NCBI GenBank assembly: GCA_034670305.1 | Contig: JAXMNT010000033.1 | Span: 1-64,000, forward strand | Direction: 5' to 3' | DNA from: Deltaproteobacteria bacterium | GTDB lineage: Bacteria > Myxococcota_A > Polyangia > Polyangiales > Houyiibacteriaceae | DNA length: 64,000 nt | In this document: one piece after another, positions 8,752 through 62,237 of the stretch | Layout: each line of letters begins with the position of its first letter | Position numbering within the stretch: the first letter of the stretch is position 1 | Translations under genes and position numbers: made by a program | The notes under the pieces: model-generated | What the model was told of the DNA's origin: nothing | Database searches by the model: none | Seen by the model: only the letters and a program-made list of their open reading frames with translations

Positions 8752-8830
8752 CCCAGAGTCTGCGTTCGAAAGGCTCAAACCGGCGGCCGGTCTCCCAGCG
8801 GGTCTGTGCCGTGTTGCGGTAGTCTGACGC

Positions 8831-9670: not shown

Positions 9671-9673
9671 CCT

Positions 9674-11164: not shown

Positions 11165-11208
11165 CCCTGCTGGATCTGTGGTCCCGGAAGGTCTACGTAG
11201 AGGCCCCC

Positions 11209-11667: not shown

Positions 11668-11711
11668 GAAGTCTTCGCCGTGATCGCGCATACTCCGGCC
11701 ATGGTGCGCGG

Positions 11712-12383: not shown

Positions 12384-12389
12384 CGTCGG

Positions 12390-13616: not shown

Positions 13617-13775
13617 ACGCCTGGATACCAGGTTTTGACCCGCAGAAGCGACTGCGCAAAGTTCGTACACCGAACGCGACGGCAAGCGCGCAACATCCGG
13701 ACACCTGCACATGCGCCGATGCCCGATCTGCGGACTCGAGGCGGCGATCCGGTCCCGTTGCGTACTGTCCTTGCA

Positions 13776-13791
13776 CGGTACGGGGTTTGCA
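13776..13791 (+). promoter_or_regulatory. Putative sigma-54 (-24/-12) promoter upstream of the amidase gene
   Basis: CGGTACGGGGTTTGCA: GG-N10-GC spacing matching TGGCAC-N5-TTGCW; ends 13 nt before ATG 13804. Confidence 0.45.
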
Positions 13792-13803
13792 CAGTGGGGC
13801 CCC

Positions 13804-43876: not shown

Positions 43877-43899
43877 GCGTTCGGCAACCAGGTGAGTCG

Positions 43900-43930
43900 A
43901 GGCCGGCGTCCGAAAGACGTCGGCCTTTTT
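43900..43930 (+). terminator. Rho-independent terminator
   Basis: Stem GGCCGGCGTC-CGAAA-GACGTCGGCC followed by TTTTT. Confidence 0.85.
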
Positions 43931-43961
43931 CGTTCGCCTTGGCGTGGCGTACCATCGCCGC

Positions 43962-44708
43962 ATGAACAAGACCGCCGCTGCGAACCCGCCCAAGAAGGCA
44001 CCCGCTCGGAAGAAGGGGCCCGCCCAAAAGGCGCCGGCCCGGAAGAAGGGCCCGCCCAAGAAGGCACCCGCTCGGAAGAAGGGCCCGGCTGTGAAGGCCC
44101 CCGCCAAGAAGAAAGCCCCCGCCAAGAAGAAGGCCCCCGCCAAGAAGAAGGCCCCCGCCAAGAAGAAAGCCCCCGCCAAGAAGAAAGCCCCCGCCAAGAA
44201 GAAGGCCCCCGCCAAGAAGAAGGCCCCCGCCAAGAAGAAAGCCCCCGCCAAGAAGACGGCCCCCGCCAAGAAGAAGGCCCCCGCCAAGAAGAAAGCCCCC
44301 GCCAAGAAGACGGCCCCCGCCAAGAAGAAAGCCCCCGCCAAGAAGAAGGCCAAGAGCCCGCTTCCGGCCGTGGCGGAAGCGCTCCTCGTGCGGGTGCGGA
44401 CGCTCGTGAAACGGCGCAAAGGGCTGTTCGAAGAGCGCCGCATGTTCGGTGGCGTGGCGTTCCTCTTTCACGGGCACATGACCGTCGGAGTCAGCGGCAA
44501 ACACCCTCGGCAGATGACCGTGCGGGTGGGCAAAGACGGGCACGCCGACGCGCTCGCACAGCCGCACGCCACCCCCATGACGTTCACTGGCCGCACGATG
44601 AAGGGATTCGTCTTCGTCGATCAGAAAGGGCTGACCTCGGACGCGGCGCTCCAAGCCTGGTTCGACCGGTCGCTCGCGCACGCCCGCACGCTTCCGCCCA
44701 AGTACTGA
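43962..44708 (+). CDS. TfoX/Sxy N-terminal-like domain protein with histone-H1-like (APAKKK)n N-terminus
   Basis: 14 x 18-nt repeats at 44097-44348; C-terminal E.RMFGG.AFL..GHM.VG, VRVG, GR.MKGFVFV, W...SLA...TLPPK. Confidence 0.85.
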   Translation: MNKTAAANPPKKAPARKKGPAQKAPARKKGPPKKAPARKKGPAVKAPAKKKAPAKKKAPAKKKAPAKKKAPAKKKAPAKKKAPAKKKAPAKKKAPAKKTAPAKKKAPAKKKAPAKKTAPAKKKAPAKKKAKSPLPAVAEALLVRVRTLVKRRKGLFEERRMFGGVAFLFHGHMTVGVSGKHPRQMTVRVGKDGHADALAQPHATPMTFTGRTMKGFVFVDQKGLTSDAALQAWFDRSLAHARTLPPKY

Positions 44709-44760: not shown

Positions 44761-45819
44761 ATGGGCCCGATCGACGCACGCGTGATCCGCGAGAGCCTGG
44801 GACGCTGGGGCGACGTGACCGACGCGCTCTGCGCGGTGCTCCGTGACTCCGACACGCGATCCGATGCCCTCGAAGCATCCGTCCGCCACCGAGCCGGGGC
44901 GTTCGTCGGCCACCGCATGATGATCGAAGGGGTCGACGCCGCGACGGCGCTGGCGGTCCTGAACGTACTCGGGTTCGACCTGCAGGAGTCGCCCTTCGCC
45001 GAACGGGTGGCGCGGGCGCCGGAGCTCCTGGCGATCGCCGGCTGGGATGCGGGCGGAGCGGAACTGGTCGGCAAGCTCTACCTCAACGGGTCGGACGCGT
45101 CGGCTGCGGTCCGCGCCGAGCTCGCTCGGGCGTTCGGCTTGCCGGCCGAGGCCGGCGCGCCGCACCTCATCGGGTTCAACCTCCTCCGCGGCGGGACGGG
45201 CCTCGCCATCGAAACCAAAATCTACGACCAGTGGGCGTCCCTGGCGGAGTGTGCGGACGACGACGTCCCGCCCTTCCTCGCGGACTGGCTCGGTGCGGCC
45301 GTGCCCGCGGGCCTCGTGCGGTCTCGCGTCGTCGACGACGGCAAGATCTCCACCAAGGCATGGTTCGTCGCACCGCGCGCGAACGACGTCGCGGAGATCC
45401 TGACGCGGGTTTCAGGGTTCGATGGGGACCGGGCGCGCACCTGCGTCCCGTTCAAGACCGGCGTCTTGAAGAGCATCGGAGGTCCGCCGGACGGGTCGAG
45501 CTGGACCCTCTACTTCAAACCCGAGGGCGCCGGCGACGCCCCCCACGCCCTCGATCCGGTGGCGTGTTTCGGGACCGAAGAGGGTGAGGTCGGGCTCTAC
45601 GTCGCGCCGAACGAAGGCACGCCCCGAGCGTATGTGCGGACCGCCCACCACGCGCTCTCCTATCGAGTCCGCGAAGGACAGCCCGCGTCCGGGGAGATCG
45701 AGGCGTTGATGACTTGGGCGGAAACACGCGTCCGGGCGTGCGAAGAAACCTCTCCCGTGGAACTGTCCGCCATCGACCTCCGCCAACCCCCAGCGCCCTG
45801 GTGCCCCCGTGACCACTGA
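44761..45819 (+). CDS. Hypothetical protein with C-terminal cluster-shared domain
   Basis: Good ORF overlapping the next gene by 11 nt; KLY/KIY beta-strand motifs; C-terminal AYVRTAHHALSY. Confidence 0.7.
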   Translation: MGPIDARVIRESLGRWGDVTDALCAVLRDSDTRSDALEASVRHRAGAFVGHRMMIEGVDAATALAVLNVLGFDLQESPFAERVARAPELLAIAGWDAGGAELVGKLYLNGSDASAAVRAELARAFGLPAEAGAPHLIGFNLLRGGTGLAIETKIYDQWASLAECADDDVPPFLADWLGAAVPAGLVRSRVVDDGKISTKAWFVAPRANDVAEILTRVSGFDGDRARTCVPFKTGVLKSIGGPPDGSSWTLYFKPEGAGDAPHALDPVACFGTEEGEVGLYVAPNEGTPRAYVRTAHHALSYRVREGQPASGEIEALMTWAETRVRACEETSPVELSAIDLRQPPAPWCPRDH

Positions 45820-46687
45820 ACCGGCCTCCGAAGCGCCGCTCCTTCCCGCCGGGCCGGCCGACCGCCACTTCGACTACTGCCTCCAACCGTATCGGCCGAG
45901 GACCACGACGCGTGGCAAGGCGCGTTCAGAGAACCTGCTGTGGCATGCGCTGGACGCCTGCGGCCTGTCCGCGGCGAGGCCCGCACTGCATGCACTTCAG
46001 GACGCGCTCGGCCGCGACATGACCGTGTGGGGATGGAAGTTCGACGGAAAACAGAACTGGGTCGAGCTCTACTTCTACGACCCGCAGAAGGAAGATGTGC
46101 GGGCGAGCGTGCCTGGCCTCAAGGAGATCCTCGCACCGCATCTCGCGCTCACCCCCGAGGTCCCGGACTGGGTGCGCTACATGATGGTCAGCTTCGATCT
46201 GAAGCCCGAGACGTTCGAGACCGGCGTCGTCGACGAGGTCAACCTGTACCTCACCGGCACCGACGAACACGCCGGGCGTTCCTACCGCGTGCGCGGGGGC
46301 GAAGCGCGGCTCGACAACACCTACCGATTCTTGCCGCCCAAACAAGAGATCGACACGGTGCTCTCGCTCCTGCAGAGCAGCATGTTCATCGACTACGACA
46401 CCTCGCCGACGGTGCTCTCGAAAGTGTTGATACCCAACCTCTTCGCCTGCAAGCGCATCTGCATCGCGAAGAAGCAGCAGAGCGACGGGGTCTACTACTC
46501 GGGCATCGACATCGACCAGCTGCTCTGGTTTCTGAAGGCGTTCCACTACCCCGCGCCGATCCAGGCGTTTGTGCGCCGACACAAGGTGCGGTTCGAACAC
46601 CTCTTCTTCGACGTCGGGATCGACACGCGCCAGCACCCGGACAAACGCATCCACTATCCGAAATCCAGCTTCTACGGGACGCTCTGA
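45809..46687 (+). CDS. Hypothetical aromatic-rich protein
   Basis: Strong coding bias; motifs TVWGWK...ELYFYD, MVSFDL, DGVYYSG, SFYGTL. Confidence 0.8.
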   Translation: MTTEPASEAPLLPAGPADRHFDYCLQPYRPRTTTRGKARSENLLWHALDACGLSAARPALHALQDALGRDMTVWGWKFDGKQNWVELYFYDPQKEDVRASVPGLKEILAPHLALTPEVPDWVRYMMVSFDLKPETFETGVVDEVNLYLTGTDEHAGRSYRVRGGEARLDNTYRFLPPKQEIDTVLSLLQSSMFIDYDTSPTVLSKVLIPNLFACKRICIAKKQQSDGVYYSGIDIDQLLWFLKAFHYPAPIQAFVRRHKVRFEHLFFDVGIDTRQHPDKRIHYPKSSFYGTL

Positions 46688-46730
46688 TGCGCCCTTTGGA
46701 ATCAGACACCCGTGTTCAGGCGGTGTTCTA

Positions 46731-48065
46731 GTGCAGAGCTACAAAGGCCGCTTCGATCCCACCCGCTTCGAAGACCTGACCGTCACGATCGACTTCCGCT
46801 GTCACAGCGCGTGTCGGTTCTGCATCGTGCAGGAGGGCATGAACTACTTCAAAGGCGTCCCGCTCGAGCGGTTTCGAGCGGTCGTCGCGGACAATACGAA
46901 GGCGCCGCGCTACCGGCGGGTGACCTTCACCGGCGGCGAGGTGAGCCTCGACAAGAGCCTGTTCGACTACCTCGCGGTGGCCCGCGAATCGGGCAGCTTC
47001 GACCACATCCGGATCCAGACGAACGGCCGGCCGATGGCCGACGAAGCGTTCACGCAGAAGCTCATCGATGCGGGCGTCGATGAGTTCTTCGTCTCGCTGC
47101 ATGGCGCCGACGCGAAGACGCAGGACTACATCTCGCAGCGCGAGGGGTCCTTCGACGAAGCGATGCGCGGGCTGGCCAACCTCCGCAAACACGACGTCGT
47201 CGTGATGACGAACACGGTGCTCACGACGTTGAACGCGCATCAGCTTCCGGAGATCGTCGAAACGGTTCGCCACATCGCGCCGACCCGCATGGAGTTCTGG
47301 TACTACCTGCCGATGGAGGACTTCGGGGACGAGCGCGGGCTCCTCCCGACGATGGACGTGCTCATTCCTCCCCTGAAAGCCGCCATCGGCAAGGCCAAGG
47401 CATACGGCTTCGGGGTGGCGGTGAAATACGTGCCGCAGTGCCTCCTCGGAGAACACGGCGACGTCGTCGACAACACCCAGCCGGACGTGGTGATCGTCGA
47501 AGACTTCTACGACGTCTACCCGCAGTTCGCGTGCCTCTACGAAGCCAAGTGCGAACACAGCGAGACCTGCCTCGGGCTGCACTACCCCTACATCGAAAAG
47601 TACGGCTGGGAGAAGGACGCCCTGACCCCGGTGGCGCGCACGACGCCCTGGCGGGAGCCGGAGTACGGCCTCTCCCTGCCCTCCGACGATCCCGGAGGCC
47701 AGGAAACCGAGCGCACCGATCAGCCCACGTGGCGCCACCTCGTCGAAGGCGTCGCCGAAGCACACGACATGGTGCTGGCGTCGGTGGTGCTCGACCGGCG
47801 CCGGTGCATCTACCGGTTCGAGTCCCCGGACTCGGAGACCAGCGTCGACCTCGTGCTCACCGCACGCAGCATGGAGCGCAAAGCGCTCGCGCGTTCGGCC
47901 TCGTTCAACATGCACTACCGGAACGTCTTCGGGGATCCCTCCTCGCTTCAGACGGTGCTCCGCGCAGCGATCGACCAGATCCGCGCCCGCGACAGCGGCG
48001 AACTCATGCTCGACGAACGCAAGGGGCTCGTCGGCCCGGACGCGTTCCGCCGCCCCCGCAAGTAG
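46731..48065 (+). CDS. Radical SAM protein (HxsC-like) with Cys-rich auxiliary site and C-terminal shared domain
   Basis: CHSACRFC, FTGGE, IQTNG, FFVSLHG; PQC...CLYEAKCEHSETCLG; GTG start 46731. Confidence 0.92.
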   Translation: MQSYKGRFDPTRFEDLTVTIDFRCHSACRFCIVQEGMNYFKGVPLERFRAVVADNTKAPRYRRVTFTGGEVSLDKSLFDYLAVARESGSFDHIRIQTNGRPMADEAFTQKLIDAGVDEFFVSLHGADAKTQDYISQREGSFDEAMRGLANLRKHDVVVMTNTVLTTLNAHQLPEIVETVRHIAPTRMEFWYYLPMEDFGDERGLLPTMDVLIPPLKAAIGKAKAYGFGVAVKYVPQCLLGEHGDVVDNTQPDVVIVEDFYDVYPQFACLYEAKCEHSETCLGLHYPYIEKYGWEKDALTPVARTTPWREPEYGLSLPSDDPGGQETERTDQPTWRHLVEGVAEAHDMVLASVVLDRRRCIYRFESPDSETSVDLVLTARSMERKALARSASFNMHYRNVFGDPSSLQTVLRAAIDQIRARDSGELMLDERKGLVGPDAFRRPRK

Positions 48066-48112
48066 CGGAGGAGGCGGCGGTTCGGCCAAGACCGACCGCG
48101 GCGAGCTGCTGG

Positions 48113-48422
48113 TAGCAGGTCGCTGAAAAGCGACCTGCTCCCTTGCCGTTGCCCGTGCCCTTGCCCGCGTCGTGGACGCCGTGTGTTTCGCGACGGCGAG
48201 GCCGCGAATCGGAGCCCGATGCCCAGCGGACGAAGCCGCCGGGCATCGGTCGGTGCTACGCGGCGCAGCTCCGCAGCCGCGCGACGCGAGCAGGTCGTCG
48301 CGATGCTCGTCGCGCTGATCAAGCGATCTGACCGCTGGTCCGCGGGCAAGGGCAAAGGCAAGGGCAGGGGCAAGGGGCAGGCTGCGAGAACGCCCTGCGG
48401 GCGTTCTTCAGCAGCCTGCTAG
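48113..48422 (+). mobile_element. MITE-like non-coding element with terminal inverted repeats and hairpin ends
   Basis: Left end TAGCAGGTCGCTGAAAA, right end TTCTTCAGCAGCCTGCTAG (imperfect TIRs bounded by (C)TAG); second copy at 1-124; internal hairpins. Confidence 0.7.
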
Positions 48423-50338
48423 AGCGCCGTGAGCTCGTCGGTGCCGTGCACTTCGGCGTAGCCGCGGCGAACGCCGAAACACTTCTTGCGGCCCGCGCAC
48501 TGGCGGCACGCGAGGCCGCGCACCATCTCGCCGCCGTCGTAGGCTTCGGGGGCGTCGGCGAGCGCAGCGCTGTCGAAGACCTCGGGCGGGGTCAGACACA
48601 GCGGCAAGCCGCACATCGCGTCGAACCCGGAGACCTGGGTGCCACGCGCCGCGGCGATGCGAAGCCCGGCCGCGAGCGACGCCTGGATGTCCGTGTAGCG
48701 TGGAATGAGATCGGCGGTGCGCGGCACCATGTCGGTGGAAGGCGCCACGAACGAAACGCAGAGTTCGGCGCTCGGCCATCGGGTGGTCAGCAGCTCGACG
48801 AACGCGGGGAAGTCGGCGTGGTTGAGTGCGCAGAAGACGAAGTTCACCCGCACGCGCAGACCGCAGGCGACCGCCGCATCCAAACCCGCCAGTGTCTGGA
48901 CGAACGTGCCGGGGGCCTTCGTCACCGCGTCGGAGATCTCGGCGCAGCTTCCGTGCAGGGAGACGAAGAGCAGGTCGGCTCCCGCGTCCTTCAAGGAGCG
49001 CGCACGCGCGGGGTCGATGCGGGTGGCGTTGGTCTGGATCTCGAGGGTGCCCGCGCCGGCCTCGCGCGCCAGCCGGACCCAGTCTTCGAGGTGGGGCAGC
49101 AACGTGGGCTCACCGCCGGAGAGGTTGAGGTCGTCGCCCCGCACGGCGGCTTCGAGGATGGCCGCGCGGATCGCGGCGTCGTGGGCGGGCGGCAAGTGGG
49201 TGGACACAAAACAGAAGTCGCAGGCTTGGTTGCACCCGAACGCGACCCGCACCGTGCGCGCACGTCGGGGCGCCTGTCCCGGAGGGCGCTGGATCTCGTC
49301 TTGAAAGAGCTCGCGCTCGACTTGATCGGGAACACTGGAGATGACGCTCAAGCGGCGCCGCACACGGTCCTGTCCGACGGGCGCTGGTTCGGATGGGTCT
49401 CCGAACGGGAGCCCTGGGCATCGGTCGGCGAGCAAGCAGCCCGCGCACCCGTCGCGGCGTCCGTATCCCTGGCGGCGACTGCCCCCGCGCGAGAGCGTGA
49501 AGAGATGCGCCACCCGAGCGGGGCGTTCGAAGAGGCAGGGCGCGATGGGGGTGCTTGTCTCGAGCCGCAGCGCGATGCCGGCGCGACGGGCCGCGATGTC
49601 GGTGGCTTCGATCGCGCGGGCGGCTTCTTGCGCGGTGCACCGCATCTCGGGCGCCGGACCTTCGCAAGGCACGTTCAACACCAGCGCCTCCACCGGCCAG
49701 CCCGCGTCCACCAGCCGCTCCGGCAGTTCGGGCAGATGCCCTCGGTTGCGGGCGAGGACCGGGGCGGAGATCTCCAGGCGCAGGCCCGCGGACACCACCG
49801 CTTCGATGCCCGCGCGCGCTCGTTCGAAGCCTCCGGGATCGCGGGTCAGGACGTCGGCCTCGTCGCCCCACCCGGGCAAATGCACCCGGACCAAGTCGAG
49901 GCCGGCGTGCTTCAGCGCCGCGGCCCGCGCGCCATCCAGCAGCGTGCCGTTGGTCTCGAGCTCGAGCCGGCGCGCACTCGGTGTGGGCGTCGCGGTGTCG
50001 CTGGGCGTCGCAGTGTCGCTGGGCGTCGCAGTGTCGCTGGGCGTCGCGGTGCCGCTGGGCGTCGCGGTGCCGCTGGTGGCATCGCCGCGGCACAGCGACA
50101 CGATCTTCGCCAGGTCCCGGCGCAGCGTGGGTTCGCCGCCGGTGATCACCAGCACCTCCGCGTCCGACGCGGCACGCGCCCGCGCCTCGACCGCCGCCAG
50201 CGCCACGAACGCACGGCGCTCTTTCGGGCGACGGCGGTGACAGAACGCGCATCCCTGGTTGCAGGTCTCGTTGGTGTGGAGCCGCGCCACCCCGCCGCGC
50301 CCTTGCATGCCCCACGTCGAGTCCCTCATCGGATCCAC
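48419..50338 (-). CDS. Tandem double radical SAM protein
   Basis: Two CxxxCxxC motifs (CNQGCAFC, CNQACDFC), each with GGEPTL and TN(G/A)T and followed by CxxCxxxxxCxG. Start uncertain (50338/50329/50308). Confidence 0.93.
   Translation of the reverse strand: MDPMRDSTWGMQGRGGVARLHTNETCNQGCAFCHRRRPKERRAFVALAAVEARARAASDAEVLVITGGEPTLRRDLAKIVSLCRGDATSGTATPSGTATPSDTATPSDTATPSDTATPTPSARRLELETNGTLLDGARAAALKHAGLDLVRVHLPGWGDEADVLTRDPGGFERARAGIEAVVSAGLRLEISAPVLARNRGHLPELPERLVDAGWPVEALVLNVPCEGPAPEMRCTAQEAARAIEATDIAARRAGIALRLETSTPIAPCLFERPARVAHLFTLSRGGSRRQGYGRRDGCAGCLLADRCPGLPFGDPSEPAPVGQDRVRRRLSVISSVPDQVERELFQDEIQRPPGQAPRRARTVRVAFGCNQACDFCFVSTHLPPAHDAAIRAAILEAAVRGDDLNLSGGEPTLLPHLEDWVRLAREAGAGTLEIQTNATRIDPARARSLKDAGADLLFVSLHGSCAEISDAVTKAPGTFVQTLAGLDAAVACGLRVRVNFVFCALNHADFPAFVELLTTRWPSAELCVSFVAPSTDMVPRTADLIPRYTDIQASLAAGLRIAAARGTQVSGFDAMCGLPLCLTPPEVFDSAALADAPEAYDGGEMVRGLACRQCAGRKKCFGVRRGYAEVHGTDELTAL
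49984..50073. repeat. In-frame 18-nt tandem repeat x5 (TATPS[G/D]) inside the first rSAM domain
   Basis: TGGGCGTCGCRGTGYCGC repeated five times. Confidence 0.9.
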
Positions 50339-50388
50339 AGGGTAGCGGAGTTGCGAACGGCGAGGGGTCCGCCTGCTACCATGCCCGG

Positions 50389-51144
50389 GTGCCCTCGACG
50401 CGTGCAGAGCAGCTTCGGACGCAGGGGTTCACCGTCTTCGATCGGCTCTACGACGAGGCGTGGGTGGACCGGATGCGGGCGGCGATTCTCGGCATCTACG
50501 AGGACGCCGGCAGCCCCGAATGCCACGCGCACCAGACGCGGGAACATCGACCGGGGCTTCACATCGGACCGGCCGGATTCGCGATCCCACAGCTTCTCCC
50601 GCGCCTCGATCCCGACGCCCGGATCGCCCATCCGCTGGTGGTGGAGACGCTGCGCGCGTTCCTCGGCGACGCGATGCGGCTGGAGATCGCAGGCGCCGTG
50701 GTGACCGACCCCTCGCGGCCCCACTTTGGTTGGCACAACCACGTGGGTGGGCACGACGACGGCGTGTACCGAAAGCGTGGCACGTGGCCGACGGTGGACC
50801 ACGCGCGGCGGGTGATGACGTTGACCTACCTGCAGGATCTCGACGACGCGCATGGACCGGTGCGCGTCTACCCCCACCGGGTCGGCGATCCCTCGTCGCC
50901 GCCGCACGACCCGAAGTCGGCGCACTGGCCAGGCGAGGTCGTGCTGCGGCCGCGCGCCGGGTCGCTGGTGGTCATCGAAGAGTGCACATGGCACGCCGTG
51001 CAAGCCGCGACGGCACCCGACAAACGCATCTTCGTGGGGCTGGCGTACGCGGCGGCGCCGGCCGAGATCGGTGGCTGGGCGGACCCGACGATCGCGGAGG
51101 TCGGCGCGCACCACACCGATCCCTTGTTGCGCTCACTGCTCTGA
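50389..51144 (+). CDS. PhyH-like non-heme iron oxygenase (HxH...H variant)
   Basis: GF.VF..LY start, WHNHVGG.D, TYLQDL....G.VRV.P, AGS.V.....TWHA, distal Arg. Confidence 0.82.
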   Translation: MPSTRAEQLRTQGFTVFDRLYDEAWVDRMRAAILGIYEDAGSPECHAHQTREHRPGLHIGPAGFAIPQLLPRLDPDARIAHPLVVETLRAFLGDAMRLEIAGAVVTDPSRPHFGWHNHVGGHDDGVYRKRGTWPTVDHARRVMTLTYLQDLDDAHGPVRVYPHRVGDPSSPPHDPKSAHWPGEVVLRPRAGSLVVIEECTWHAVQAATAPDKRIFVGLAYAAAPAEIGGWADPTIAEVGAHHTDPLLRSLL

Positions 51145-52869
51145 CGGAGCGGACGCGCGCGGCTTGTCGCGGTAGACCTTTTCGAGCGCCTCGAGCGACG
51201 TGCCGCGGAGGCGGCGCGCGAGGTCGCGCAAGAGCTCCAGCAACGCGTCGGGCGCCTCTTTGCCGCCGTACGAGAGACCGAAGCCATCGCTCCGCACGAA
51301 GTGCGCGTTCCCCTCGAGCGGCGCGAACCGAATTTCCGTCTCGCCGAACGAGGGATGATGTACCTGCAGGCGGAGCACGCCTTTCTCGAACGCCGCCGCG
51401 ACGGCGCGGGCGGGCGACGGCAGCGCCAGGGTGCGCACGAGAGCCGCGGTGGGCGCCGACATCGGCACCGGCACTTCGATCGGCCGCGCGCGGGGCCGGG
51501 CGCCGTCCTTGCCGGCCCGCTTGGCCGCGATCTGCACGAGCTGATGTTGCAGGGCGCCGAGTTCGGCAAACGTCTCGGCCCGCTCTTGCGCACTGACCGC
51601 CGGCGGCATGCTCGTCTTGACCTGGTCGTAGTCGCTGAAGGTCTTCCTCGCCGGACCGGGCCAGTGCGCGACCCCCGCTTCGCCCAGCACCGTGCTCGGC
51701 AAGGGATGGAAGTTCGACCACATGAACGAGCCGGGCTTCAGTCGGTGAAGGAGCGCCGTCGTCGCTTTCATCTGTTCCCGCGTCTCGCCCGGCAACATGG
51801 TCATCAACGAAGCGCTCGTTTCGAGTCCCAGATCCCGGCAATCGTCGAAGACCGCTTGAAGCCGCGCGTCGCTCGTCCGGCGGTTCAGCACGTCCCGACG
51901 AAACGCCTCGTCGCCCGCTTCGATGCCGCAGTGAAAGAGCGAACACCCGGCCTTCTTGAGCAGCGTCAGGCGCGGGCGGGTCGCCGCGTTCGGATGCATC
52001 TCGACTTTGAACGGCAAGCCCACGCGCGCCGGGTACACCTCGGCGAACTTCTCGAGCCATTTCAGGTCCACCGGGAAGTGTTCGTCCCAGAACTCGAAGC
52101 CTTCCGGCCGGTACCGGTCGCGCAGCGAGACGAGCTCGTCGCACAGCTCCGCGACTGGGCGGGTGTTGCGGCGGCTCTTCTCCGAGAACCGGCCGAGCTT
52201 GCCCCACGACGGCGCCGAGCAGTACGCGCAGGAGAACGGACACCCCCGGCCGGCGCGGGTGGGCAGGTAGCCGTCGATGAGTGGACCGAACGTGTTGATG
52301 CCCGCTTCGATCGCCTCGGGCACCGATCCGAACACTTCGTAGTCCCACCACGGAAGCGCGGCGATGTCCGGCTCCGAATCGGCCGGCGGAGGATCCCCAT
52401 CCCACCCACGGTCTGACGCCGCGTCGCGAACCCACAAACCAGGCGATGTTTCGGGCGGTTCGCCGCGCGACAGCCGATCGAGCAGGCGCGCCATGGGCCG
52501 CTCTCCTTCGCCCAGGCAAATCGCATGCACCCCCGCGCACTCGGCGACCTCGCGCGGCGCCAAGCTCGCGTGGTAGCCGCCGACCACCACGGTGGCGTCG
52601 GTTGTCTGGCGGTCGATCAGCGCGTGCGCACCGGGCCAGTCCCGCGTCATGCACGAGAGCGCCAAGACGTCCGGCGCGAGCCCGTCGATGTGCGCCGCGA
52701 CGTCGTCGATCGTGTACCCGCGGAAGACCTCGAGTGCCTCACTCTCGTGCCCCTCCGCTCGAACCACTGGGGAGAGCGCCGCCACCGACGAGCTGAACGC
52801 GCGCGGTGGGTCCGTGAAGAACACGAAGAGCACGCGCAGGGTCCGCTTCGCAGATCGCGCGGCGGTCAT
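51133..52869 (-). CDS. Cobalamin-binding radical SAM protein
   Basis: B12 domain VVVGGYHAS.AP, GEGE; RGCPFSCAYC; GIEAG.E..R..VLNR; LPGET; C-terminal shared domain. Confidence 0.93.
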   Translation of the reverse strand: MTAARSAKRTLRVLFVFFTDPPRAFSSSVAALSPVVRAEGHESEALEVFRGYTIDDVAAHIDGLAPDVLALSCMTRDWPGAHALIDRQTTDATVVVGGYHASLAPREVAECAGVHAICLGEGERPMARLLDRLSRGEPPETSPGLWVRDAASDRGWDGDPPPADSEPDIAALPWWDYEVFGSVPEAIEAGINTFGPLIDGYLPTRAGRGCPFSCAYCSAPSWGKLGRFSEKSRRNTRPVAELCDELVSLRDRYRPEGFEFWDEHFPVDLKWLEKFAEVYPARVGLPFKVEMHPNAATRPRLTLLKKAGCSLFHCGIEAGDEAFRRDVLNRRTSDARLQAVFDDCRDLGLETSASLMTMLPGETREQMKATTALLHRLKPGSFMWSNFHPLPSTVLGEAGVAHWPGPARKTFSDYDQVKTSMPPAVSAQERAETFAELGALQHQLVQIAAKRAGKDGARPRARPIEVPVPMSAPTAALVRTLALPSPARAVAAAFEKGVLRLQVHHPSFGETEIRFAPLEGNAHFVRSDGFGLSYGGKEAPDALLELLRDLARRLRGTSLEALEKVYRDKPRASAPSEQ

Positions 52870-53684
52870 GGCGCACCGTATGCCCGCGCAAGCGCGGGGT
52901 GGTCGGTCAACGCATGCGCGGTCTGCTCGTCGCGGCGTTTGGTCGGAGCCAGGCCGGCGCGTCGCACGAAGAACGCGAAGAAGTACCGGTGGCCTGCCCG
53001 GCGCATGGGCGTCGCCGCGTGCCAGGTCCCTTGATCGAGCAGCACGACCGAGCCCGCCGGCGCGCGCACTTCCTTCGCGCCAGGCCACGGGACACGACCG
53101 GGCTCGTGCGGCGGTGCCGTCGGCGAATCGGCGCGGCGCGGATGCACCAGCAAGGTGCCGAACGCGTCGTCGAGTGGGGTCGTGTAGAGGGTGCACCCGA
53201 TGCGCTCCACGCCGGACGGATGCGGGTACGACTTCCGTCGCAGGTCCGGCTCGTCGATGCCGCCCGCGTGGTGGTGCCAGAAAAGAAACCCCCGCGACGC
53301 ATCGCACACGACCCCGGTGCCGAGCTCCAGTTCGAACCCCTCGCCGAGCGTGCGTGCGAAGAGATCGAGCAGGACCGGTCTCAGCAACAGGTCTGCGAGT
53401 CCGGGTGCGTGCCGCAAGATCCCCGCACACGCGAGGCCGACGGGGCTGACGTGCATGCCCGGTTCGACGTGCACGTCCTCTTGCGAAAAGAGGGGCGGCT
53501 CGCCGACCCGCCGCCAAGCGCGTTCGAGCGTGGCTTCGTACCGGGCACACTCCGCTTGCCCCACCAGCGAGGGAAGCACGGCGTAGCCCTCGGTCTCGAG
53601 CGCGCGGTGGAGTTCGGCGGCGCCGGGTGCGGACCGCTCGCGCGCCGGTTCGACATCGCGCGCCTTGGCATCGGGCACGCTCAC
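52866..53684 (-). CDS. PhyH-like non-heme iron oxygenase (HxH...H variant)
   Basis: EGYAVLP, WHHHAGGID, LY...LD...G.LLVHP, PAGSVVLLDQ.TWHAA, R.FF; GTGA/ATGA coupled on both sides. Confidence 0.82.
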   Translation of the reverse strand: MSVPDAKARDVEPARERSAPGAAELHRALETEGYAVLPSLVGQAECARYEATLERAWRRVGEPPLFSQEDVHVEPGMHVSPVGLACAGILRHAPGLADLLLRPVLLDLFARTLGEGFELELGTGVVCDASRGFLFWHHHAGGIDEPDLRRKSYPHPSGVERIGCTLYTTPLDDAFGTLLVHPRRADSPTAPPHEPGRVPWPGAKEVRAPAGSVVLLDQGTWHAATPMRRAGHRYFFAFFVRRAGLAPTKRRDEQTAHALTDHPALARAYGAP

Positions 53685-54457
53685 CGCGGGTCCCCTGGGA
53701 GGATCTCCTGCAGGAGTGGCGACGCACCCGTCACCGCGCGCAGGGTCTCGTCGTGCAGTTCGGTCGGGCCCACGTCGCCGGCCGCGAACCAGAGACCGAA
53801 GAAGATCCGCAACTCGGTGTCGCTCGTGCGCGGGAGCGCGGCGTGCCAGGTCGTCTGGTCGACCAGGACCGTGGTGCCCGGCGGCCCTTCGATCACCACT
53901 TGCCCAGGCCAGGGCCCACCGATCGGTTCCGTGCACGGCGGACTGCCGTCGTCGTTGCGATCCGGGTGTACGAGCAGACGCCCGGCGCCTTCCTTCATGT
54001 CGTCCAGGTAAACGATCATCGCCAAGCGCTGGAGCTTCGGCAGCTGCGGCCGTTCGCCGCGCCGCCGAAAGAGTTCTTCGTCGATGCCGCCGACGTGGTT
54101 GTGCCAGTCGAAGAACGGCCGAGTGTGGTTGGTGACCACGGCGCCGGTGAGTTCGAGATGGGTCCCGCGACCGAGCGCGGCTTGGGCGATGCGAACCACC
54201 TCTTCGTCGAGCATGAACGCGTGCAGTTCGGGGCTCTTCTTCAGCACCTTCGTCAGCACGAGCCCGGTGCTCGACAGCTCCACGTTCTCCGCCACCGTCT
54301 TGTGCTCTTTCGAGTACAGCGGCGGCCGACCGAGCGCCTCGTACTGCGCGACGATCGCCGCACGCAGCCGCTTCACTTGGTCGGGCGTGTATTGACTCGG
54401 CAGCACACAGAAGCCCCGCGCCTCGATCTCACGTGCGCGCACGTGGACGCTGTTCAT
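53681..54457 (-). CDS. PhyH-like non-heme iron oxygenase (HxH...H variant)
   Basis: RGFCVLP, WHNHVGGID, VYLDD....G.LLVHP, PGT.VL.DQ.TWHAA, RIFFG. Confidence 0.85.
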   Translation of the reverse strand: MNSVHVRAREIEARGFCVLPSQYTPDQVKRLRAAIVAQYEALGRPPLYSKEHKTVAENVELSSTGLVLTKVLKKSPELHAFMLDEEVVRIAQAALGRGTHLELTGAVVTNHTRPFFDWHNHVGGIDEELFRRRGERPQLPKLQRLAMIVYLDDMKEGAGRLLVHPDRNDDGSPPCTEPIGGPWPGQVVIEGPPGTTVLVDQTTWHAALPRTSDTELRIFFGLWFAAGDVGPTELHDETLRAVTGASPLLQEILPGDPR

Positions 54458-56181
54458 CCCTGCGGCCTCTCGCCGAGCGCCTCACCCTCCATCGCCGGGG
54501 GCGGTCCGAGCAGACAAGCGCTGGCGTGGGCGTGCACCACATCGATGACGCGCCGAAGTCCGACAGCGCTCGTGCGATCGACCGGCCCTTGATGGGTGTA
54601 GGCGATGCCGTCTCGTTCCACGAAGCAGCGCGGACGATCCACGGCGGGCTTGGCTTCCAGCACGACGCCACCGTCGGGCCCCTCGAGGTCGTAGAAGACG
54701 GCCGCGTCTCCCGCCCGCGCGTTGTTGAGCCGCCACGTGGGCCCGAGTTCGGACACCTCGTCGCTGAGCGTCTGCAGAATCTCCGCGCCGATGCCGCGAT
54801 GGACCACCCCCGCGTCCGCCCGGCCAGAGGATCGAACGCTCGGCGATGTGTCGTCGCGCTCACCCCTGTACTTGTCGGGGCCGCTCGACGTGAGCGCGAA
54901 CCCTACCCACCCCTCGTTGAGAATGGGCCGGTCGGCGTTCGAGGCCAGCTCGTACAACCACTGCCACGTCTCCTCCAAGTCGCGCGCCGGCCACCCATCG
55001 CAAGAACGGGTGATGAAGTCCGCGGGATCGAAATCGATGTGCAGCTCGTCCGCGCGTTCGAGAAGCGCGTCGGGCAGAACGATGCACTTGAACGCTTTGA
55101 CCGTGTCGCCCAACTCGAGCGACTTCTCGACGGTGCGTTTGAAGGAGTCGGGGTTGTCGCCGGGCAACCCGAGGATGAGTTCGATGTCGAAATCGAGCCG
55201 GCCGCGCATGCGGTCGAGCACCGTCTCGAACTTCGCCAGGTCGAATGGTCGACCGAGCCGCCGGAGGACGTCCTCGTCGAAGCTCTGGATGCCCACGCTG
55301 GCCTGCACCTGGCCGACGCCATCGAAGAACTTCAAGTGATGCTCTTCGAGGTACGTCGGATACAGGTGCCCGTGCACGATCGAATCTTTCAACACGCCGA
55401 CGTCGTTCTCCGCGGCGACCAGCGCCCGAAACGCGCGTGGGCTCAGGTTGAACGCGGCGTCCAAGAAGAAGACGTTCGGCACATTCGCCCGCTGGAGCCC
55501 CTGCAGGTGCGCGCGCAGGTAGTCGACGCCGTGCACGCGATCGGACTTCTGCTCGCCCCACTGGCAGAACGCGCAGTGGATCGGACATCCCCGGAAGGTC
55601 TCGATGTAGCCCGTCTTGTGGAGCGGGCCGACATCGAGTTGGTACGGCGAGGGGTAGTCGTCGATGACCGGCCGTTCGATGGTCGCGCTGCTGCGCCACA
55701 GGCCGTGCTGAGGCACTTCGAGTCCTGGGACCCGGCTTGTCCAACGGGGCGTCTGGTGTTCGCGCACCAGCGCTCGAATCACTTCTTCGCCCTCGCCCGT
55801 GACGACCGCGTCGAGGCGGTTGCGAAAGCCCTGGTAGAGCGGAAGGTCCAGCACCGAACGCCGGGCCGCCGGGCCGCCCGCGACCACGGGCATCTTCGGC
55901 CAACGCGCGCGGATCCGTTCGGTGAGTGCCGCGAACACCGGAAGCGACCAGATGTAGGTGGACAGCCCGATCAGGGTCGGCCCGAAGGTCTCGAGCTCCG
56001 CCATGAAGACGTCCGGGTCATCGCTCCGAAGGTCGAGCAGGAGCACCTCGACGTCGTCGAGGTCGGGGGCGCTTCGAATGGACGCGCGCAGCTTCTCGAT
56101 GCCGTACGAGAACGAGAAGAACGTTCCGTTCGGATCCCGCCACTGCGCGTCCATCGCCACCAGTGCCACTCGACGATTCAC
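54454..56181 (-). CDS. Cobalamin-binding radical SAM protein
   Basis: GLSTYIWS, VVAGGP, GEGE, IETFRGCPIHCAFCQW, LDAAFN, VGIQS, ILGLPGD; C-terminal shared domain. Confidence 0.93.
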   Translation of the reverse strand: MNRRVALVAMDAQWRDPNGTFFSFSYGIEKLRASIRSAPDLDDVEVLLLDLRSDDPDVFMAELETFGPTLIGLSTYIWSLPVFAALTERIRARWPKMPVVAGGPAARRSVLDLPLYQGFRNRLDAVVTGEGEEVIRALVREHQTPRWTSRVPGLEVPQHGLWRSSATIERPVIDDYPSPYQLDVGPLHKTGYIETFRGCPIHCAFCQWGEQKSDRVHGVDYLRAHLQGLQRANVPNVFFLDAAFNLSPRAFRALVAAENDVGVLKDSIVHGHLYPTYLEEHHLKFFDGVGQVQASVGIQSFDEDVLRRLGRPFDLAKFETVLDRMRGRLDFDIELILGLPGDNPDSFKRTVEKSLELGDTVKAFKCIVLPDALLERADELHIDFDPADFITRSCDGWPARDLEETWQWLYELASNADRPILNEGWVGFALTSSGPDKYRGERDDTSPSVRSSGRADAGVVHRGIGAEILQTLSDEVSELGPTWRLNNARAGDAAVFYDLEGPDGGVVLEAKPAVDRPRCFVERDGIAYTHQGPVDRTSAVGLRRVIDVVHAHASACLLGPPPAMEGEALGERPQG

Positions 56182-56238
56182 GCGCAAACTCTAGCAGGCT
56201 CTGCGATCGGCGGGTGGCGGTTCCAGTTTCCTGTCCGC

Positions 56239-57960
56239 TCAGCGGCCCTTCTTCTGAGCGCCCATCTTCTTCGCGAGCTTCGCCCAACTGTCTTTGAGCG
56301 TGATCGTTCGGTGAAAGACCGCGTCTGCGACCCCGTCCGACACGATGCGGTCCAGCACGAAGTACCCGAGCCGCTCGAACTGCACGCGGGTTCCAGCCGC
56401 CAGCCCACGCACCGAGGGTTCCGCGACCCCGTGGACGTCCTCGAGGCTCTCCGGGTTCAAGTGGGCGCGGAAGTCGTCTCCTTCGGACGGGTCCTCGGAC
56501 GAGAAGAGCCGCTCGTAGAGCCGCGCCTGGATCGGCACGCCCTTCTCCGCGCTCACCCAGTGCAGGGTGCCGCGCACCTTCCGGCCGTCCGCCGGGCTGC
56601 CGCCGCCACTCTCCGGATCCCACGTGCAGCGAAGTTCGATCACTTCGCCCGCGTCGTTGCGGACGACCTCGTCGCAGGTGATGAGCGCCGCGCCCCGAAG
56701 CCGGACCTCGCGGCCTAGACCCAGCCGGAACCACTTCTTGGGCGGGTCGTCCATGTAGTCGTCCTGCTCGACGTAGACGGTGCGGGTCAGCACCACCTTC
56801 CGGGTGCCGGCGCTCTCGTCGTGCGGGAGGTTCGGCACCTCGTACTCGTGGGCTTCGCCTTCGGGGAAGTTCGTCAGCGTGACCTTGAGCGGGCGAAGCA
56901 CCGCCATGATGCGGTGCGAGGTCGCGTTGAGGTCTTCGCGCAGTTCGTGCTCGAGCAGACCGACGTCGACGAGGCCACCGTGTTTGGACACGCCGATCCG
57001 CTCGCAGAACGCGCGCAGCGACGACGCCGTGTACCCGCGGCGCCGCATGCCGGAGAGCGTCGGCATCCGGGGATCGTCCCAGCCTTCGACCACGCCCTCT
57101 TCCACGAGCGACAAGAGCTTGCGCTTGGACAGCAGTGTGTACGAGAGCGCGAGCCGACCGAACTCGATCTGGCGGGGCGGCGACTCGATCTCGAGCGCGG
57201 CCAAGAACCAATCGTAGAGCGCGCGGTGGTTGACGAACTCGAGCGAACAGACCGAGTGCGTGACTCCTTCGATCGCGTCCGACTGCCCGTGGGCCCAGTC
57301 GTACATCGGGTAGATGCACCAGGTGTCGCCGGTGCGGTGGTGGGTCACTTTTCGGATCCGGTACATGAGCGGATCTCGCAGCTTCAGATCCTTCGACGCG
57401 AGGTCGATCTTCGCGCGCAGCACCGCGGCGCCTTCGTCGAATCCGCCCGCCTTCATCTTCGCGAAGAGCTCGAGGTTCTCCTCGACCGACCGGTCGCGAT
57501 CGGCGCTCGCTTCGCCGACGCGGTGGAAGTCTCCTCGGGTCGCGCGGATCTCCTCTTCGCTTCGGAGGTCGACGTACGCGAGCCCCTTCTCGATCAATTG
57601 CACCGCCCAGTCGTGCAGCTGCTGGAAGTAGTCGGACGCGAAGTGTTCGTGTTCGCCCCACGAGAAGCCGAGCCACTCGATGTCCGCCTTGATGGCGTCG
57701 ACGTACTCGGTGGACTCCTTCTCCGGGTTGGTGTCGTCGAAGCGGAGGTTGGTGTGGGCTTCTTTCAACCCGCGGTCGCGTCCGATCTGCGCGAGCCCGA
57801 AGTTCAAGCAGATGGCTTTCGCGTGGCCGATGTGCAGGTAGCCATTGGGCTCCGGCGGGAACCGAGTGACAACGCGCTGAGCCCGTCCGCTCTCGATCTC
57901 GCCCTCCACGAGCTCCGCCACGAAGTTGCCCGGCTGTCCCTCATCGCGCTCTGCGTTCAT
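56239..57960 (-). CDS. glnS: Glutaminyl-tRNA synthetase
   Basis: TRFPPEPNGYLHIGHAK, LRFDDTNP.KE, YPMYD..H, CSLEF, LSKRKL, WDDPRMPT, G.LHWV, QFERLGYF. Confidence 0.98.
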   Translation of the reverse strand: MNAERDEGQPGNFVAELVEGEIESGRAQRVVTRFPPEPNGYLHIGHAKAICLNFGLAQIGRDRGLKEAHTNLRFDDTNPEKESTEYVDAIKADIEWLGFSWGEHEHFASDYFQQLHDWAVQLIEKGLAYVDLRSEEEIRATRGDFHRVGEASADRDRSVEENLELFAKMKAGGFDEGAAVLRAKIDLASKDLKLRDPLMYRIRKVTHHRTGDTWCIYPMYDWAHGQSDAIEGVTHSVCSLEFVNHRALYDWFLAALEIESPPRQIEFGRLALSYTLLSKRKLLSLVEEGVVEGWDDPRMPTLSGMRRRGYTASSLRAFCERIGVSKHGGLVDVGLLEHELREDLNATSHRIMAVLRPLKVTLTNFPEGEAHEYEVPNLPHDESAGTRKVVLTRTVYVEQDDYMDDPPKKWFRLGLGREVRLRGAALITCDEVVRNDAGEVIELRCTWDPESGGGSPADGRKVRGTLHWVSAEKGVPIQARLYERLFSSEDPSEGDDFRAHLNPESLEDVHGVAEPSVRGLAAGTRVQFERLGYFVLDRIVSDGVADAVFHRTITLKDSWAKLAKKMGAQKKGR

Positions 57961-58060: not shown

Positions 58061-58903
58061 TCAGGTCGACGACAAGAGCTGGGCGAACCGGGGGGCGCCC
58101 GAGCGGCGCACGGTCCGGACGGTCGCGCAGGTGGTGTCGCCGCAGCCGATCTCATGGTCGAACACCAGCTCGTCCGCCGAGACGCGGCCCACCCGCCGGG
58201 TGCGCACCCAAGCCGATTCTCCGGCCACCATGCCCTTGCTGTACGACACCTTCTCGGCCACCGGGACGAGCTCCGCCGGGTCCATGCCCGCGTCGGCCAT
58301 CGCGCGCGACACCGACTCGTCCGCCCAGTCGAGGTACGCCGGATGGTTCACGTGGGCGAGGGGATCCATCCAGGTGTGCCAGACCTGGAACTCGAAGCCG
58401 CCCGTCTGGGCTGCGGAGGTACCGGCCGCTTCTTCGGTCTCGAACGCCGGCATCGCGGGCACCGAGTCCGGGTCGAGGTCGACCACCGGAAACGCATCGC
58501 TCAAAGAGGCCGGCGCGCGCGCTGCGGCGAGCTGCAAGATCCCCTCGCCGTCTTTCTCCGCATGCACGTGCACCCACTCCTGGGAGCCGCGTGCGATGTC
58601 ACCGCGGTCGCTCGTGATCCGGATCTCTCGCGTGGAGAAGATGCCGCGGCGAAACCGGCGCACCCAGGTCTTCGCGTGGAGCGTCTCCCCGTAGACCGCC
58701 TCCCGGTCGTGCACGACCGTCATCGAACGCATCACGAACGCGGACCCGGTCTCGCGGTACCGGCCCGGAGGCCAACCCGCGCGGGTCGATCCCTCGACGG
58801 CGACCTCTTGCATGGCCCGCCACACATCCCCGGCCCTCGCCGCGTCACGCACCGAGAACGCGTGGCGGGGCAAGCCGACTTCGAAACTCCACTCCGACTG
58901 CAC
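58061..58903 (-). CDS. Acyl-ACP thioesterase-like (double hotdog) protein
   Basis: QEVA...S...G, TW...R, QEWVHV, D.LAHVNHPAYLDW..E catalytic motif; 3' part of the long antisense ORF. Start approximate. Confidence 0.8.
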   Translation of the reverse strand: MQSEWSFEVGLPRHAFSVRDAARAGDVWRAMQEVAVEGSTRAGWPPGRYRETGSAFVMRSMTVVHDREAVYGETLHAKTWVRRFRRGIFSTREIRITSDRGDIARGSQEWVHVHAEKDGEGILQLAAARAPASLSDAFPVVDLDPDSVPAMPAFETEEAAGTSAAQTGGFEFQVWHTWMDPLAHVNHPAYLDWADESVSRAMADAGMDPAELVPVAEKVSYSKGMVAGESAWVRTRRVGRVSADELVFDHEIGCGDTTCATVRTVRRSGAPRFAQLLSST

Positions 58904-59002
58904 GACGCTCTTTACCGCCCCGCGACAGTCGGCGCACGGGGGTTCCTGGCCCGAACCTGCGGACCCTTCCTTGGCGGGTACGCGGCTGGTACGGTCACAC
59001 CG

Positions 59003-60400: not shown

Positions 60401-60442
60401 GGAAGCCCGCAAGAGACGCCAGGGCGTGGTACCGTCCGGTGC

Positions 60443-61792: not shown

Positions 61793-61832
61793 TCGTCTCT
61801 CGCAGCGGCGCCGACACAGGTATGCTCGCGCC

Positions 61833-62237
61833 ATGAGTACCTCCCTCCGCTTCGTCGTCGCGTGTGTTGCCCTCTCCGCGTGTGCGTCCGGTCCGCAGAT
61901 CGCCCCCGAACAGCGGCTTGCCGATCTCGCCGCGGCCACCCACACGCCGGTGGGGTCACCGGACGACGCGGCCGCCAACAGCTTGGTCGTGCAGGGGGTC
62001 GTCGACCACGACACCCTCATGCGCATGGCACGCCATGAAGTCGAAGAAGCCATCGGCCGCGGCGAGACGTGCTCGCGTCACCCGCGCTGCGGCACCAACG
62101 GGTTCAACGACGACGACTGGTTCTACTCCGTCGGCACCCAGCGCGAGGGGTACGCGGGGGCGGTGCCGATCCTGATTGTCGGATTCGACCGCGAGGGTCG
62201 CGTGACCCGCGTGTGGAACCTCCGCATGCACGACTGA
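61833..62237 (+). CDS. Hypothetical lipoprotein
   Basis: Lipobox LSAC; 'EV...IG.G...W.Y..G...L.V.FD..GRV' resembles a BamE/SmpA-like fold (weak). Confidence 0.7.
   Translation: MSTSLRFVVACVALSACASGPQIAPEQRLADLAAATHTPVGSPDDAAANSLVVQGVVDHDTLMRMARHEVEEAIGRGETCSRHPRCGTNGFNDDDWFYSVGTQREGYAGAVPILIVGFDREGRVTRVWNLRMHD

Follow-up and report, generated by a model that had tools for sequence, protein, structure and literature searches.

This report concerns nine contiguous genes, here called A to I, at positions 44761-56187 of a 64,000-nucleotide (nt) stretch of Polyangiales DNA (contig JAXMNT010000033.1 of assembly GCA_034670305.1, positions 1 to 64,000 of the forward strand; hereafter 'the window'). 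Because the G+C content of the window is ~68%, lists of its open reading frames (ORFs) are crowded with false frames, and the genes were chosen by third-position GC together with inspection of start codons. The nine encode five radical S-adenosylmethionine (SAM) domains, three PhyH-like paralogues and two proteins without a family match, a composition that an earlier note on this DNA had described and that gene calls, Pfam and alignment confirm. All nine products are soluble by these calls, and none contains a hydrophobic segment. Much of what follows turns on B, a barrel protein of an unnamed family, and on its association with the radical SAM protein C.

Three genes run forward at the left of the cluster. 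A (44761-45819, +; 352 residues) and B (45809-46687, +; 292 residues) overlap by 11 nt, and C (46731-48065, +) follows B after 44 nt, with a GTG start at 46731 that is backed by alignment with a Pontibrevibacter orthologue described below; it is a single radical SAM protein with a Cys-rich, twitch/SPASM-like C-terminal region and an extension of ~135 residues. D (48419-50338, -), a tandem double radical SAM protein of two C-like halves for which orthologue consensus makes the ATG at 50308 the likelier start, diverges across a gap of 50-80 bp from E (50389-51144, +), a PhyH-like double-stranded beta-helix protein paralogous to G and H, and E in turn converges on F with a 12-nt overlap. The last four genes are all on the reverse strand: I (54454-56187, -; start TTG at 56187 or GTG at 56181), a cobalamin-dependent, TokK/CysS-like radical SAM protein with a C-terminal extension of ~150 residues; H (53681-54457, -) and G (52866-53684, -), PhyH-like paralogues with the motifs WHNH and WHHH; and F (51133-52869, -), a divergent B12-binding radical SAM protein with a C-terminal extension of ~120 residues. 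The overlaps that the earlier note had reported are present between I and H (ATGA, 54454-54457), H and G (GTGA, 53681-53684) and G and F (ATGA, 52866-52869), and I-H-G-F are thereby translationally coupled. An 864-residue ORF at 51133-53727 was rejected as a single gene, its first ~285 residues being Arg-rich and off-frame; the true start of F is the ATG at 52869, and G is separate.

Neither Pfam nor NCBIfam scans of the nine genes revealed a non-ribosomal peptide synthetase, polyketide synthase, terpene cyclase, transporter or protease domain, in agreement with the earlier note. The same holds for its statement that no precursor peptide is evident, since the sole sizeable gap (48066-48418) contains no coding-like small ORF and no precursor family was found. 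Against the defence models of PADLOC nothing specific emerged: C and D had only generic pVip-core matches, I matched the candidate model PDC-M51A (2e-20), and A, B, E, F and G were without a match. Rfam families, riboswitches included, had no match in 40000-64000. The C-D intergenic region does carry nested inverted repeats (48111-48381), with 30-nt arms at 48140-48169 and 48341-48370 that are 87% complementary and 171 nt apart, hairpins of 29 nt (48201-48264) and 14 nt (48111-48142), and a GGGCAA array of 5.5 copies, likewise without a match in Rfam.

A and B have no Pfam or NCBIfam match at E<=0.01, and profile searches of the PDB with either were empty or meaningless. AlphaFold2 models built from the family alignments are confident (B: pLDDT 96.2, pTM 0.92, ten strands; A: pLDDT 89.5, pTM 0.85, about 12 strands), and their top Foldseek matches in the PDB are exclusively ABBA prenyltransferases, with 76 matches at E<=1e-3 for B and 81 for A. 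B retrieved LimF (7vmy, E 3.3e-6), KgpF, AmbP3, DciF, FamD1 and NphB/Orf2 at template modelling (TM) scores of 0.35-0.55, and A retrieved PagF (5tu6, E 3e-7), the 5-DMATS 6zrz, IptA (7w8u), PatF and PriB at TM 0.39-0.53. Judged by these models, both proteins fold as ABBA prenyltransferase barrels (PT-barrels), with the ten-strand antiparallel barrel and flanking helices known from PagF, LimF, KgpF, DciF, PatF, IptA, the SCO7467 5-DMATS, NphB/Orf2 and AmbP/FamD1. A is DMATS/PagF-like by structure, its likeness being greatest to the indole prenyltransferases. In the Atlas, weak links (score 0.84-0.89) lead from the barrel proteins to clusters with PF11468 in 11-41% of their members. The two 'hypotheticals' of the earlier note are thus without a family match, as it said, but they are not featureless, and its description of the cluster as scaffold-less is weakened in that PT-barrel proteins could perform a scaffold-forming alkylation.

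The resemblance to ABBA enzymes extends to size (~290-350 residues), solubility and strands rich in conserved Tyr and basic residues. Positions conserved in at least 70% of 70 B sequences include K37, K77, K222, K285, E86, nine Tyr, Asn and His residues, D272 and D268, the last present in 70/70; in A, the pairs K105-x-Y107, K153-x-Y155, Y251-x-K253 and R302-x-R304 are invariant and lie on strands. These residues are in the style of a diphosphate-binding, Tyr-lined chamber, the lumen of which they may line. A and B differ from the known enzymes in having no sequence-profile membership and a TM of only ~0.5, and B differs further in two ways. Its barrel is preceded by a conserved N-terminal segment, D-Y-C-L-x-P-Y-x-P, which is modelled at high confidence (Y28 is conserved in 95% of sequences and P30 in 91%), and it stands next to radical SAM proteins or is joined with them in one chain, an association unreported for ABBA enzymes in the literature searched.

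In an exhaustive HMMER search the family of B comprises 358 representative clusters at E<=1e-3, and 62 of these also pass E<=1e-30. Among the best 150 representatives, 116 are stand-alone proteins of 250-340 residues, 21 are fragments of fewer than 250, one is intermediate (386) and 12 are fusions longer than 420 residues, in all 12 of which the B domain is C-terminal. The fusion partners recall the neighbours of B in the window: an A-like barrel (P0182 and, in part, P0183), a C-like radical SAM protein (P0206, 31% identical to C at E 6e-44; P0238, E 2e-50; and the fragment P0212), a B12-like radical SAM domain followed by a C/D-like one (P0200, 1031 residues), a B12-binding domain with a radical SAM domain (P0275) and a PhyH domain (P0312). 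In four further proteins (P0196, P0198, P0236 and P0248) the partner is an unnamed N-terminal domain of ~300 residues that is barrel-like by motif only; as a homologue of A this domain is unsupported in P0196, P0198 and P0236 (hhalign probability 3%).

The pairing of B and C also recurs outside the Myxococcota. A plasmid of the alphaproteobacterium Pontibrevibacter (NZ_CP049813.1) encodes a B homologue (33% identity) with a C orthologue 97 bp downstream (38% identity over 292 residues, E 2e-68). In the same plasmid search C found, besides this orthologue, only remote radical SAM genes of Clostridium perfringens (26-27% identity), and H found none. Directly upstream of the Pontibrevibacter pair (locus coordinates 3169-14949, +) lies a gene for a 3926-residue protein that is rich in Gly, Ala, Thr and Ser, has a start resembling a signal peptide and has a C-terminus like that of an autotransporter, this gene being itself preceded by one for an M50 peptidase-domain protein; the C. 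perfringens plasmid NZ_CP075938.1 carries an unrelated operon resembling those for peptides that are made ribosomally and modified after translation (RiPPs), with a precursor of the NHLP clan, two DUF6365 genes, two radical SAM genes, mtnK and metK.

Structure prediction of C (residues 1-310) together with B gave a median ipSAE of 0.74 against 0.37 for the best control, a mark reached by 116/157 solved complexes and 2/215 mismatched pairs, counts that hold only roughly here because our own alignments were used in the C-B prediction. At least 89% of contacts were common to the runs, with a partner pLDDT of at least 89, and the predicted interface joins residues 265-309 of C, in its Cys-rich C-terminal region, to residues 178-213 of B. 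Searches of the PDB turned up no such complex, so it seems unlikely that the docking merely reproduces a known structure. B is therefore predicted to dock on C.

Among the radical SAM proteins, scores to PF04055 were 76 bits for C, 132 bits over two stretches for D, 56.6 for F and 48.2 for I, and those to the B12-binding family PF02310 were 54.5 for F and 43.8 for I, all four values of F and I being above cut-off. CxxxCxxC motifs are present in C, twice in D, and in F and I, where they read CPFSCAYC and CPIHCAFC; F and I each combine an N-terminal B12-binding domain with this core, as class B radical SAM enzymes do. The motif of C starts at residue 24, and the nearest PDB sequences of C are SkfB (3e-10), BlsE and the tetraether lipid synthase GDGT-MAS (4e-5). 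In NCBIfam the highest or almost highest matches of C and D are to HxsC and HxsC4 of the HxsB/HxsC maturases, but the scores are 72-110 bits against cut-offs of 268-500 (for TIGR03977, 72.5 bits for C and 85.4 for D against 267.9), and no HxsA, HxsB or HxsD partner was present among 12 proteins scanned. The 'HxsC-like' label that the earlier note gave to the single radical SAM protein is for this reason a weak resemblance and not a membership.

In the PDB, I is closest to TokK (6e-19) and CysS (1.7e-13), and F to AprD4 (2e-5) and to the B12 domain of TokK (1.5e-4). I shares with TokK/ThnK, which act in carbapenem biosynthesis, and with CysS, of the cystobactamids, the N-terminal B12-binding domain, the radical SAM core and the CxxxCxxC motif, and is probably a C-methylase of that kind, to judge by its sequence. 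Unlike them it falls far below the NCBIfam subfamily cut-off (KedN5, 64.5 against 700), both I and F carry C-terminal extensions of ~120-150 residues, and no carbapenem or cystobactamid genes are found at the cluster. The characterised B12-dependent equivalogs as a whole (TokK/ThnK, CysS, HpnR, PhpK, KedN5, BchE) score F and I far below cut-off, as do the best NCBIfam matches of F (TIGR04013, ApyD, rSAM_ladder_B12). The extensions of C (310-444), F (~440-578) and I (~420-577) belong to no family. Compared with the last beta-beta-alpha unit of A they show a weak similarity (4, 4 and 30 of 500 shuffles, respectively, reach the score), and they are unlike each other (219-391 of 500).

D is a paralogue of C, its second half being 28% identical to it (E 1e-21). 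It has 836 homologues at E<=1e-3, of which the best 120 align along their whole length at 44-74% identity and bear names that point to Polyangiales, Sandaracinaceae and Polyangium; in the D fusions P0098 and P0106 the additional sequence consists only of further radical SAM stretches. At 639 residues D is longer than most homologues (about 600), and an 18-bp tandem repeat of 5.2 copies (49984-50076) encodes (SDTATP)n as an insert in its first radical SAM half.

Identities among E, G and H run to 29-34%, and 47 columns of their alignment are invariant. Their matches to PhyH (PF05721) straddle the gathering cut-off of 22 bits (H 25.6, E 20.9, G 20.6), all 30 Atlas clusters nearest to H are PhyH, and their profile finds SnoK (9.5e-4) and EvdO2 (0.017) in the PDB. 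With SnoK they align at a distal His (H205) and at an Arg 12 residues further on (R217), which is invariant and corresponds to the 2-oxoglutarate (2OG)-binding Arg. They resemble the PhyH oxygenases (SnoK, EvdO2, phytanoyl-CoA hydroxylase) in these respects, and differ from them in the proximal motif and in belonging to a small family, H having 52 homologues whose organism names, where given, are all Myxococcota. PhyH enzymes canonically have the proximal motif W-H-x-D, the start of an H-x-D/E facial triad. Here it is W-H119-x-H121, invariant in 46 sequences, and E reads WHNH...TWHA...R. By comparison with the canonical motif rather than by superposition, H121 would occupy the position of the carboxylate ligand and give a site of three His. 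How stringent the 2-His-1-Asp motif is in prolyl hydroxylase forms, as far as the portion of the source available to us indicates, the topic of a separate paper (PMC2767507).

Because B and C are adjacent in two phyla, because B is fused elsewhere to counterparts of its neighbours, and because B is predicted to dock on C, A-B-C and the operon of B12-dependent radical SAM and PhyH-like genes look like one undescribed system. This agrees with the proposal of the earlier note that the genes form one modification system, in so far as most of them are functionally linked. It had recognised no described pathway in the combination, and that too stands: NCBIfam equivalogs score far below cut-off, PDB sequence matches are remote, and a PT-barrel family coupled to radical SAM proteins is described neither among curated families or solved structures nor by any paper in the openly readable literature. 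Our preferred reading, which we put forward tentatively and hold to be somewhat short of an even chance, is that we have here a genuine biosynthetic (tailoring) cluster, with the PT-barrel B bound to the radical SAM protein C as its conserved core and with a prenylated small metabolite that is subsequently methylated and oxidised. To this core the source genome adds a second barrel (A), the B12-dependent enzymes I and F, and the PhyH-like E, G and H.

In the scheme that we have in mind, the barrels would take up an isoprenoid diphosphate in a chamber lined with Tyr and Lys and use it to alkylate a small aromatic molecule as acceptor. B might then keep the hydrophobic intermediate at the auxiliary-cluster end of C, which would abstract a hydrogen from a C-H bond by radical chemistry and so bring about a cyclisation or the formation of a C-C or C-heteroatom bond. 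I and F would attach carbon to positions that are not activated, and others would be oxidised by E, G and H. Conjectural in this scheme are prenyl transfer itself, the sequence of the steps, and what the substrate and the product are. A bolder version, which we consider rather doubtful, is that B-family barrels are obligate partner subunits of radical SAM enzymes, forming with them a new two-component class, distributed across several phyla, in which the binding or transfer of prenyl (or other diphosphate-activated alkyl) groups is linked to radical C-H chemistry; the myxobacterial cluster would then show this class at its most elaborate, making a new type of heavily C-methylated and oxidised prenylated metabolite with the help of 3-His oxygenases of PhyH fold.

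It is important to set out what weighs against a tailoring cluster built on B and C. As to the barrels, curated models (Pfam PTase_Orf2 and Trp_DMAT; NCBIfam LynF/TruF/PatF) leave A and B unmatched, the structural matches are moderate (TM 0.35-0.55, root-mean-square deviation 5-10 A), homology of A with B is unsupported by profiles (hhalign probability 0.2%), and since there is no residue-level superposition, we only infer that the two bind diphosphate. The 64-kb window holds no isoprenyl diphosphate synthase or terpene cyclase. The Pontibrevibacter pair is the only outside gene context seen for B; it has no A, B12-dependent radical SAM or PhyH-like gene as a neighbour, and among 72,556 plasmids that B-family member is the only one, also when other members of the family are used as queries. 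The PhyH domain of P0312 is a typical one and not of the E/G/H type, the alignment of C used for complex prediction contained natural C-B fusions and may thereby have biased the docking, and E, G and H, with their HxH motif, may not be active Fe/2OG oxygenases.

Conservation of the nine genes as a set is a further point on this side. A genome scan with the D alignment retrieved 80 loci, 24 of which hold near-full-length D orthologues; all 80 were searched with the window proteins by tblastn (the first 36 rows inspected) and with profiles against six-frame ORFs. A, B or a PhyH-like gene was found in 0/80, with only sub-threshold matches (E 0.0069 and 0.00089), and no family recurs beside D in more than six of the 24 orthologue loci. 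The nine genes are thus not a conserved unit. The families are also of unequal size, with six relatives for A (besides A itself, among 5.8 billion proteins), 52 for H, 358 representatives for B and 836 for D, from which it follows that the nine genes are an assembly and not a fixed unit. In favour of a link between the genes, co-location in a few close relatives is seen indirectly, from homologues lying on contigs of identical size: D, H and A homologues on one of 12655 nt, H and A on 9294 nt, D and A on 27416 nt, and D and H on 4085 nt, chance agreements in size being unlikely among a few hundred pairs.

As far as sequence goes, D is a conserved, widespread and usually solitary gene of the Polyangia, which makes its membership of the system uncertain and renders the 80 loci uninformative on the rest of the cluster. 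It could have been recruited as a paralogue of C, or could simply reside here without any relation to the system. At one related locus, the ORFs upstream of D belong to no family.

The main rival to a cluster for a prenylated small metabolite is a RiPP pathway, in which the barrels would be peptide prenyltransferases of the cyanobactin F type, C a peptide-modifying radical SAM enzyme, F and I C-methyltransferases of peptides and E, G and H hydroxylases of peptides, in the manner of the proteusins and polytheonamide, the precursor being encoded elsewhere or overlooked. The top structural matches are indeed RiPP prenyltransferases (LimF, KgpF and DciF for B; PagF and PatF for A), the nearest PDB sequence of C is the sactisynthase SkfB, and the weak NCBIfam matches of F include ApyD and rSAM_ocin_1. 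Proteusin clusters of the polytheonamide type combine B12-dependent radical SAM C-methyltransferases with a radical SAM epimerase and an Fe/2OG hydroxylase, and the present cluster is similar in its mix of B12-dependent radical SAM, radical SAM and Fe/2OG-type genes and in the dense C-H functionalisation that this would imply. It differs in that the scans yielded neither an NHLP/Nif11 precursor nor a LanM-type dehydratase, an N-methyltransferase or a protease, and PT-barrels are not a known part of proteusin clusters. The window also holds an orphan gene (7039-8322, -; 427 residues) with a TIGR04267 aKG-HExxH peptide beta-hydroxylase domain (98.7 bits, where 40 is the cut-off; no Pfam match). 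It lies 37 kb from the cluster, beyond hyp/hydrogenase-maturation and other unrelated genes, flanked by genes for an ion channel and for SIR2, and neither a precursor nor a radical SAM partner is evident nearby. Against a peptide substrate, small ORFs resembling a precursor gene are missing from the cluster and its borders, the ORFs scanned include no member of NHLP, Nif11 or any other precursor family, and there is no protease or transporter and, in general scans, no RiPP recognition element (no dedicated search for one was made). The position of the radical SAM motif in C leaves no room for an N-terminal recognition domain, all matches to RiPP families in NCBIfam are far below cut-off, and the Pontibrevibacter locus has no annotated precursor. 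We consider this reading unlikely.

A second alternative is that B, and A with it, bind an isoprenoid or lipid chain without transferring it and present it to radical enzymes that modify a membrane or isoprenoid lipid, by analogy with the hopanoid methylases, the glycerol dialkyl glycerol tetraether (GDGT) synthase and phytanoyl-CoA hydroxylase. Each enzyme family present has members that act on isoprenoid lipids. B is a C-terminal appendage in 12/12 fusions, as a binding module would be, its predicted interface lies at the auxiliary-cluster region of C, and C weakly matches GDGT-MAS/Tes, as F and I do HpnR, HpnJ and rSAM_ladder_B12. However, the polar set of B (K, E, D, N, H) is strongly conserved, as is typical of a catalytic or diphosphate site, the nine proteins have no hydrophobic segments, no lipid-biosynthesis gene is adjacent, and the lipid-family matches are all far below cut-off. 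A mere holder of lipid chains appears improbable.

It might also be that A-B-C, D, E and I-H-G-F have separate functions and stand together in this lineage by chance. Transcription changes among four directions within 11.4 kb, D orthologues are solitary and the outside B-C pair without the other genes, and the family sizes differ by orders of magnitude. Yet B is fused to B12-dependent radical SAM and PhyH domains in other organisms, A and H homologues of 56-73% identity share the 9.3- and 12.7-kb contigs in relatives, and E is a paralogue of G and H; taken together, we regard a chance mosaic as quite improbable. Least likely of all is that C is a maturase of B, modifying the conserved D-Y-C-L-x-P-Y-x-P segment into a protein-derived cofactor, a notion that the motif's conservation and confident modelling ahead of the barrel, and the likeness of C to SPASM/twitch enzymes that modify proteins, might encourage, but the predicted interface is at B 178-213 and not at the N-terminus, the motif Cys is below the 70% conservation list, and no precedent was found.

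Further genes lie on either side of the cluster. Upstream, 53 bp before A, a TfoX_N-domain protein is encoded at 43944-44708 (+; Pfam TfoX_N, 51.6 bits), whose N-terminal ~140 residues are AKKKAP repeats of histone-H1 type, with an 18-bp array of 14.4 copies at 44093-44351. A terminator-like hairpin (43899-43927; 12-bp stem and T-tract) separates this gene from esterase and methyltransferase genes further upstream. The TfoX_N gene possibly opens the transcription unit that includes A-B-C. Downstream, a full-length glutaminyl-tRNA synthetase gene (56239-57960, -; TIGR00440, 640.9 bits) shares the strand of I, begins the next gene 51 bp upstream of it and may be housekeeping. It is followed by a thioesterase-fold gene (58061-58900, -) and by genes for Ser/Thr protein kinases, within 58862-60400 and at 60443-61792 (+); an ORF of 1330 residues at 58061-62053 is a false long frame. 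A gene that begins at 62069 (+) and runs off the end of the window at 64000 encodes a membrane protein that is polytopic, with nine hydrophobic segments, and matches no family in Pfam or NCBIfam; the label 'GT-C-like' that it had received is neither confirmed nor refuted. That this gene and the aKG-HExxH gene belong to the same system, as the earlier note had suggested, is not borne out, no tie of either to the cluster having been found. Between 20655 and 38661 the window encodes [NiFe]-hydrogenase functions (HypF, HypA, HypE-like, HypD and the large subunit NiFeSe_Hases), and a P450-ferredoxin fusion at 36934-38661.

A tailoring cluster as such is of a known kind, and it is the core architecture that may be new. 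If true, a stable pairing and fusion of ABBA barrels with radical SAM enzymes would be a new architecture drawn from two heavily mined enzyme groups, and the 358 unnamed representative clusters of the B family would serve as a handle for genome mining. Two families hitherto 'hypothetical', A and B, would gain a testable role. The branch to which E, G and H belong is a small one of PhyH fold, so far myxobacterial only, with an H-x-H metal motif, and its chemistry may differ from ordinary hydroxylation. Sandaracinus strains reportedly make prenylated indoles (the indiacens) and farnesylated dimethylbenzimidazoles (the sandacrabins), for which it proved impossible to pinpoint the prenyltransferase genes (PMC9306752). 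No homologue of A from a named Sandaracinus is among the seven matches of the A search, and we take these products of the Sandaracinaceae as context and as a lead only, not as evidence for the present locus. In that sense clusters of this kind might be examined as candidate loci for the orphan prenylated aromatics of the family.

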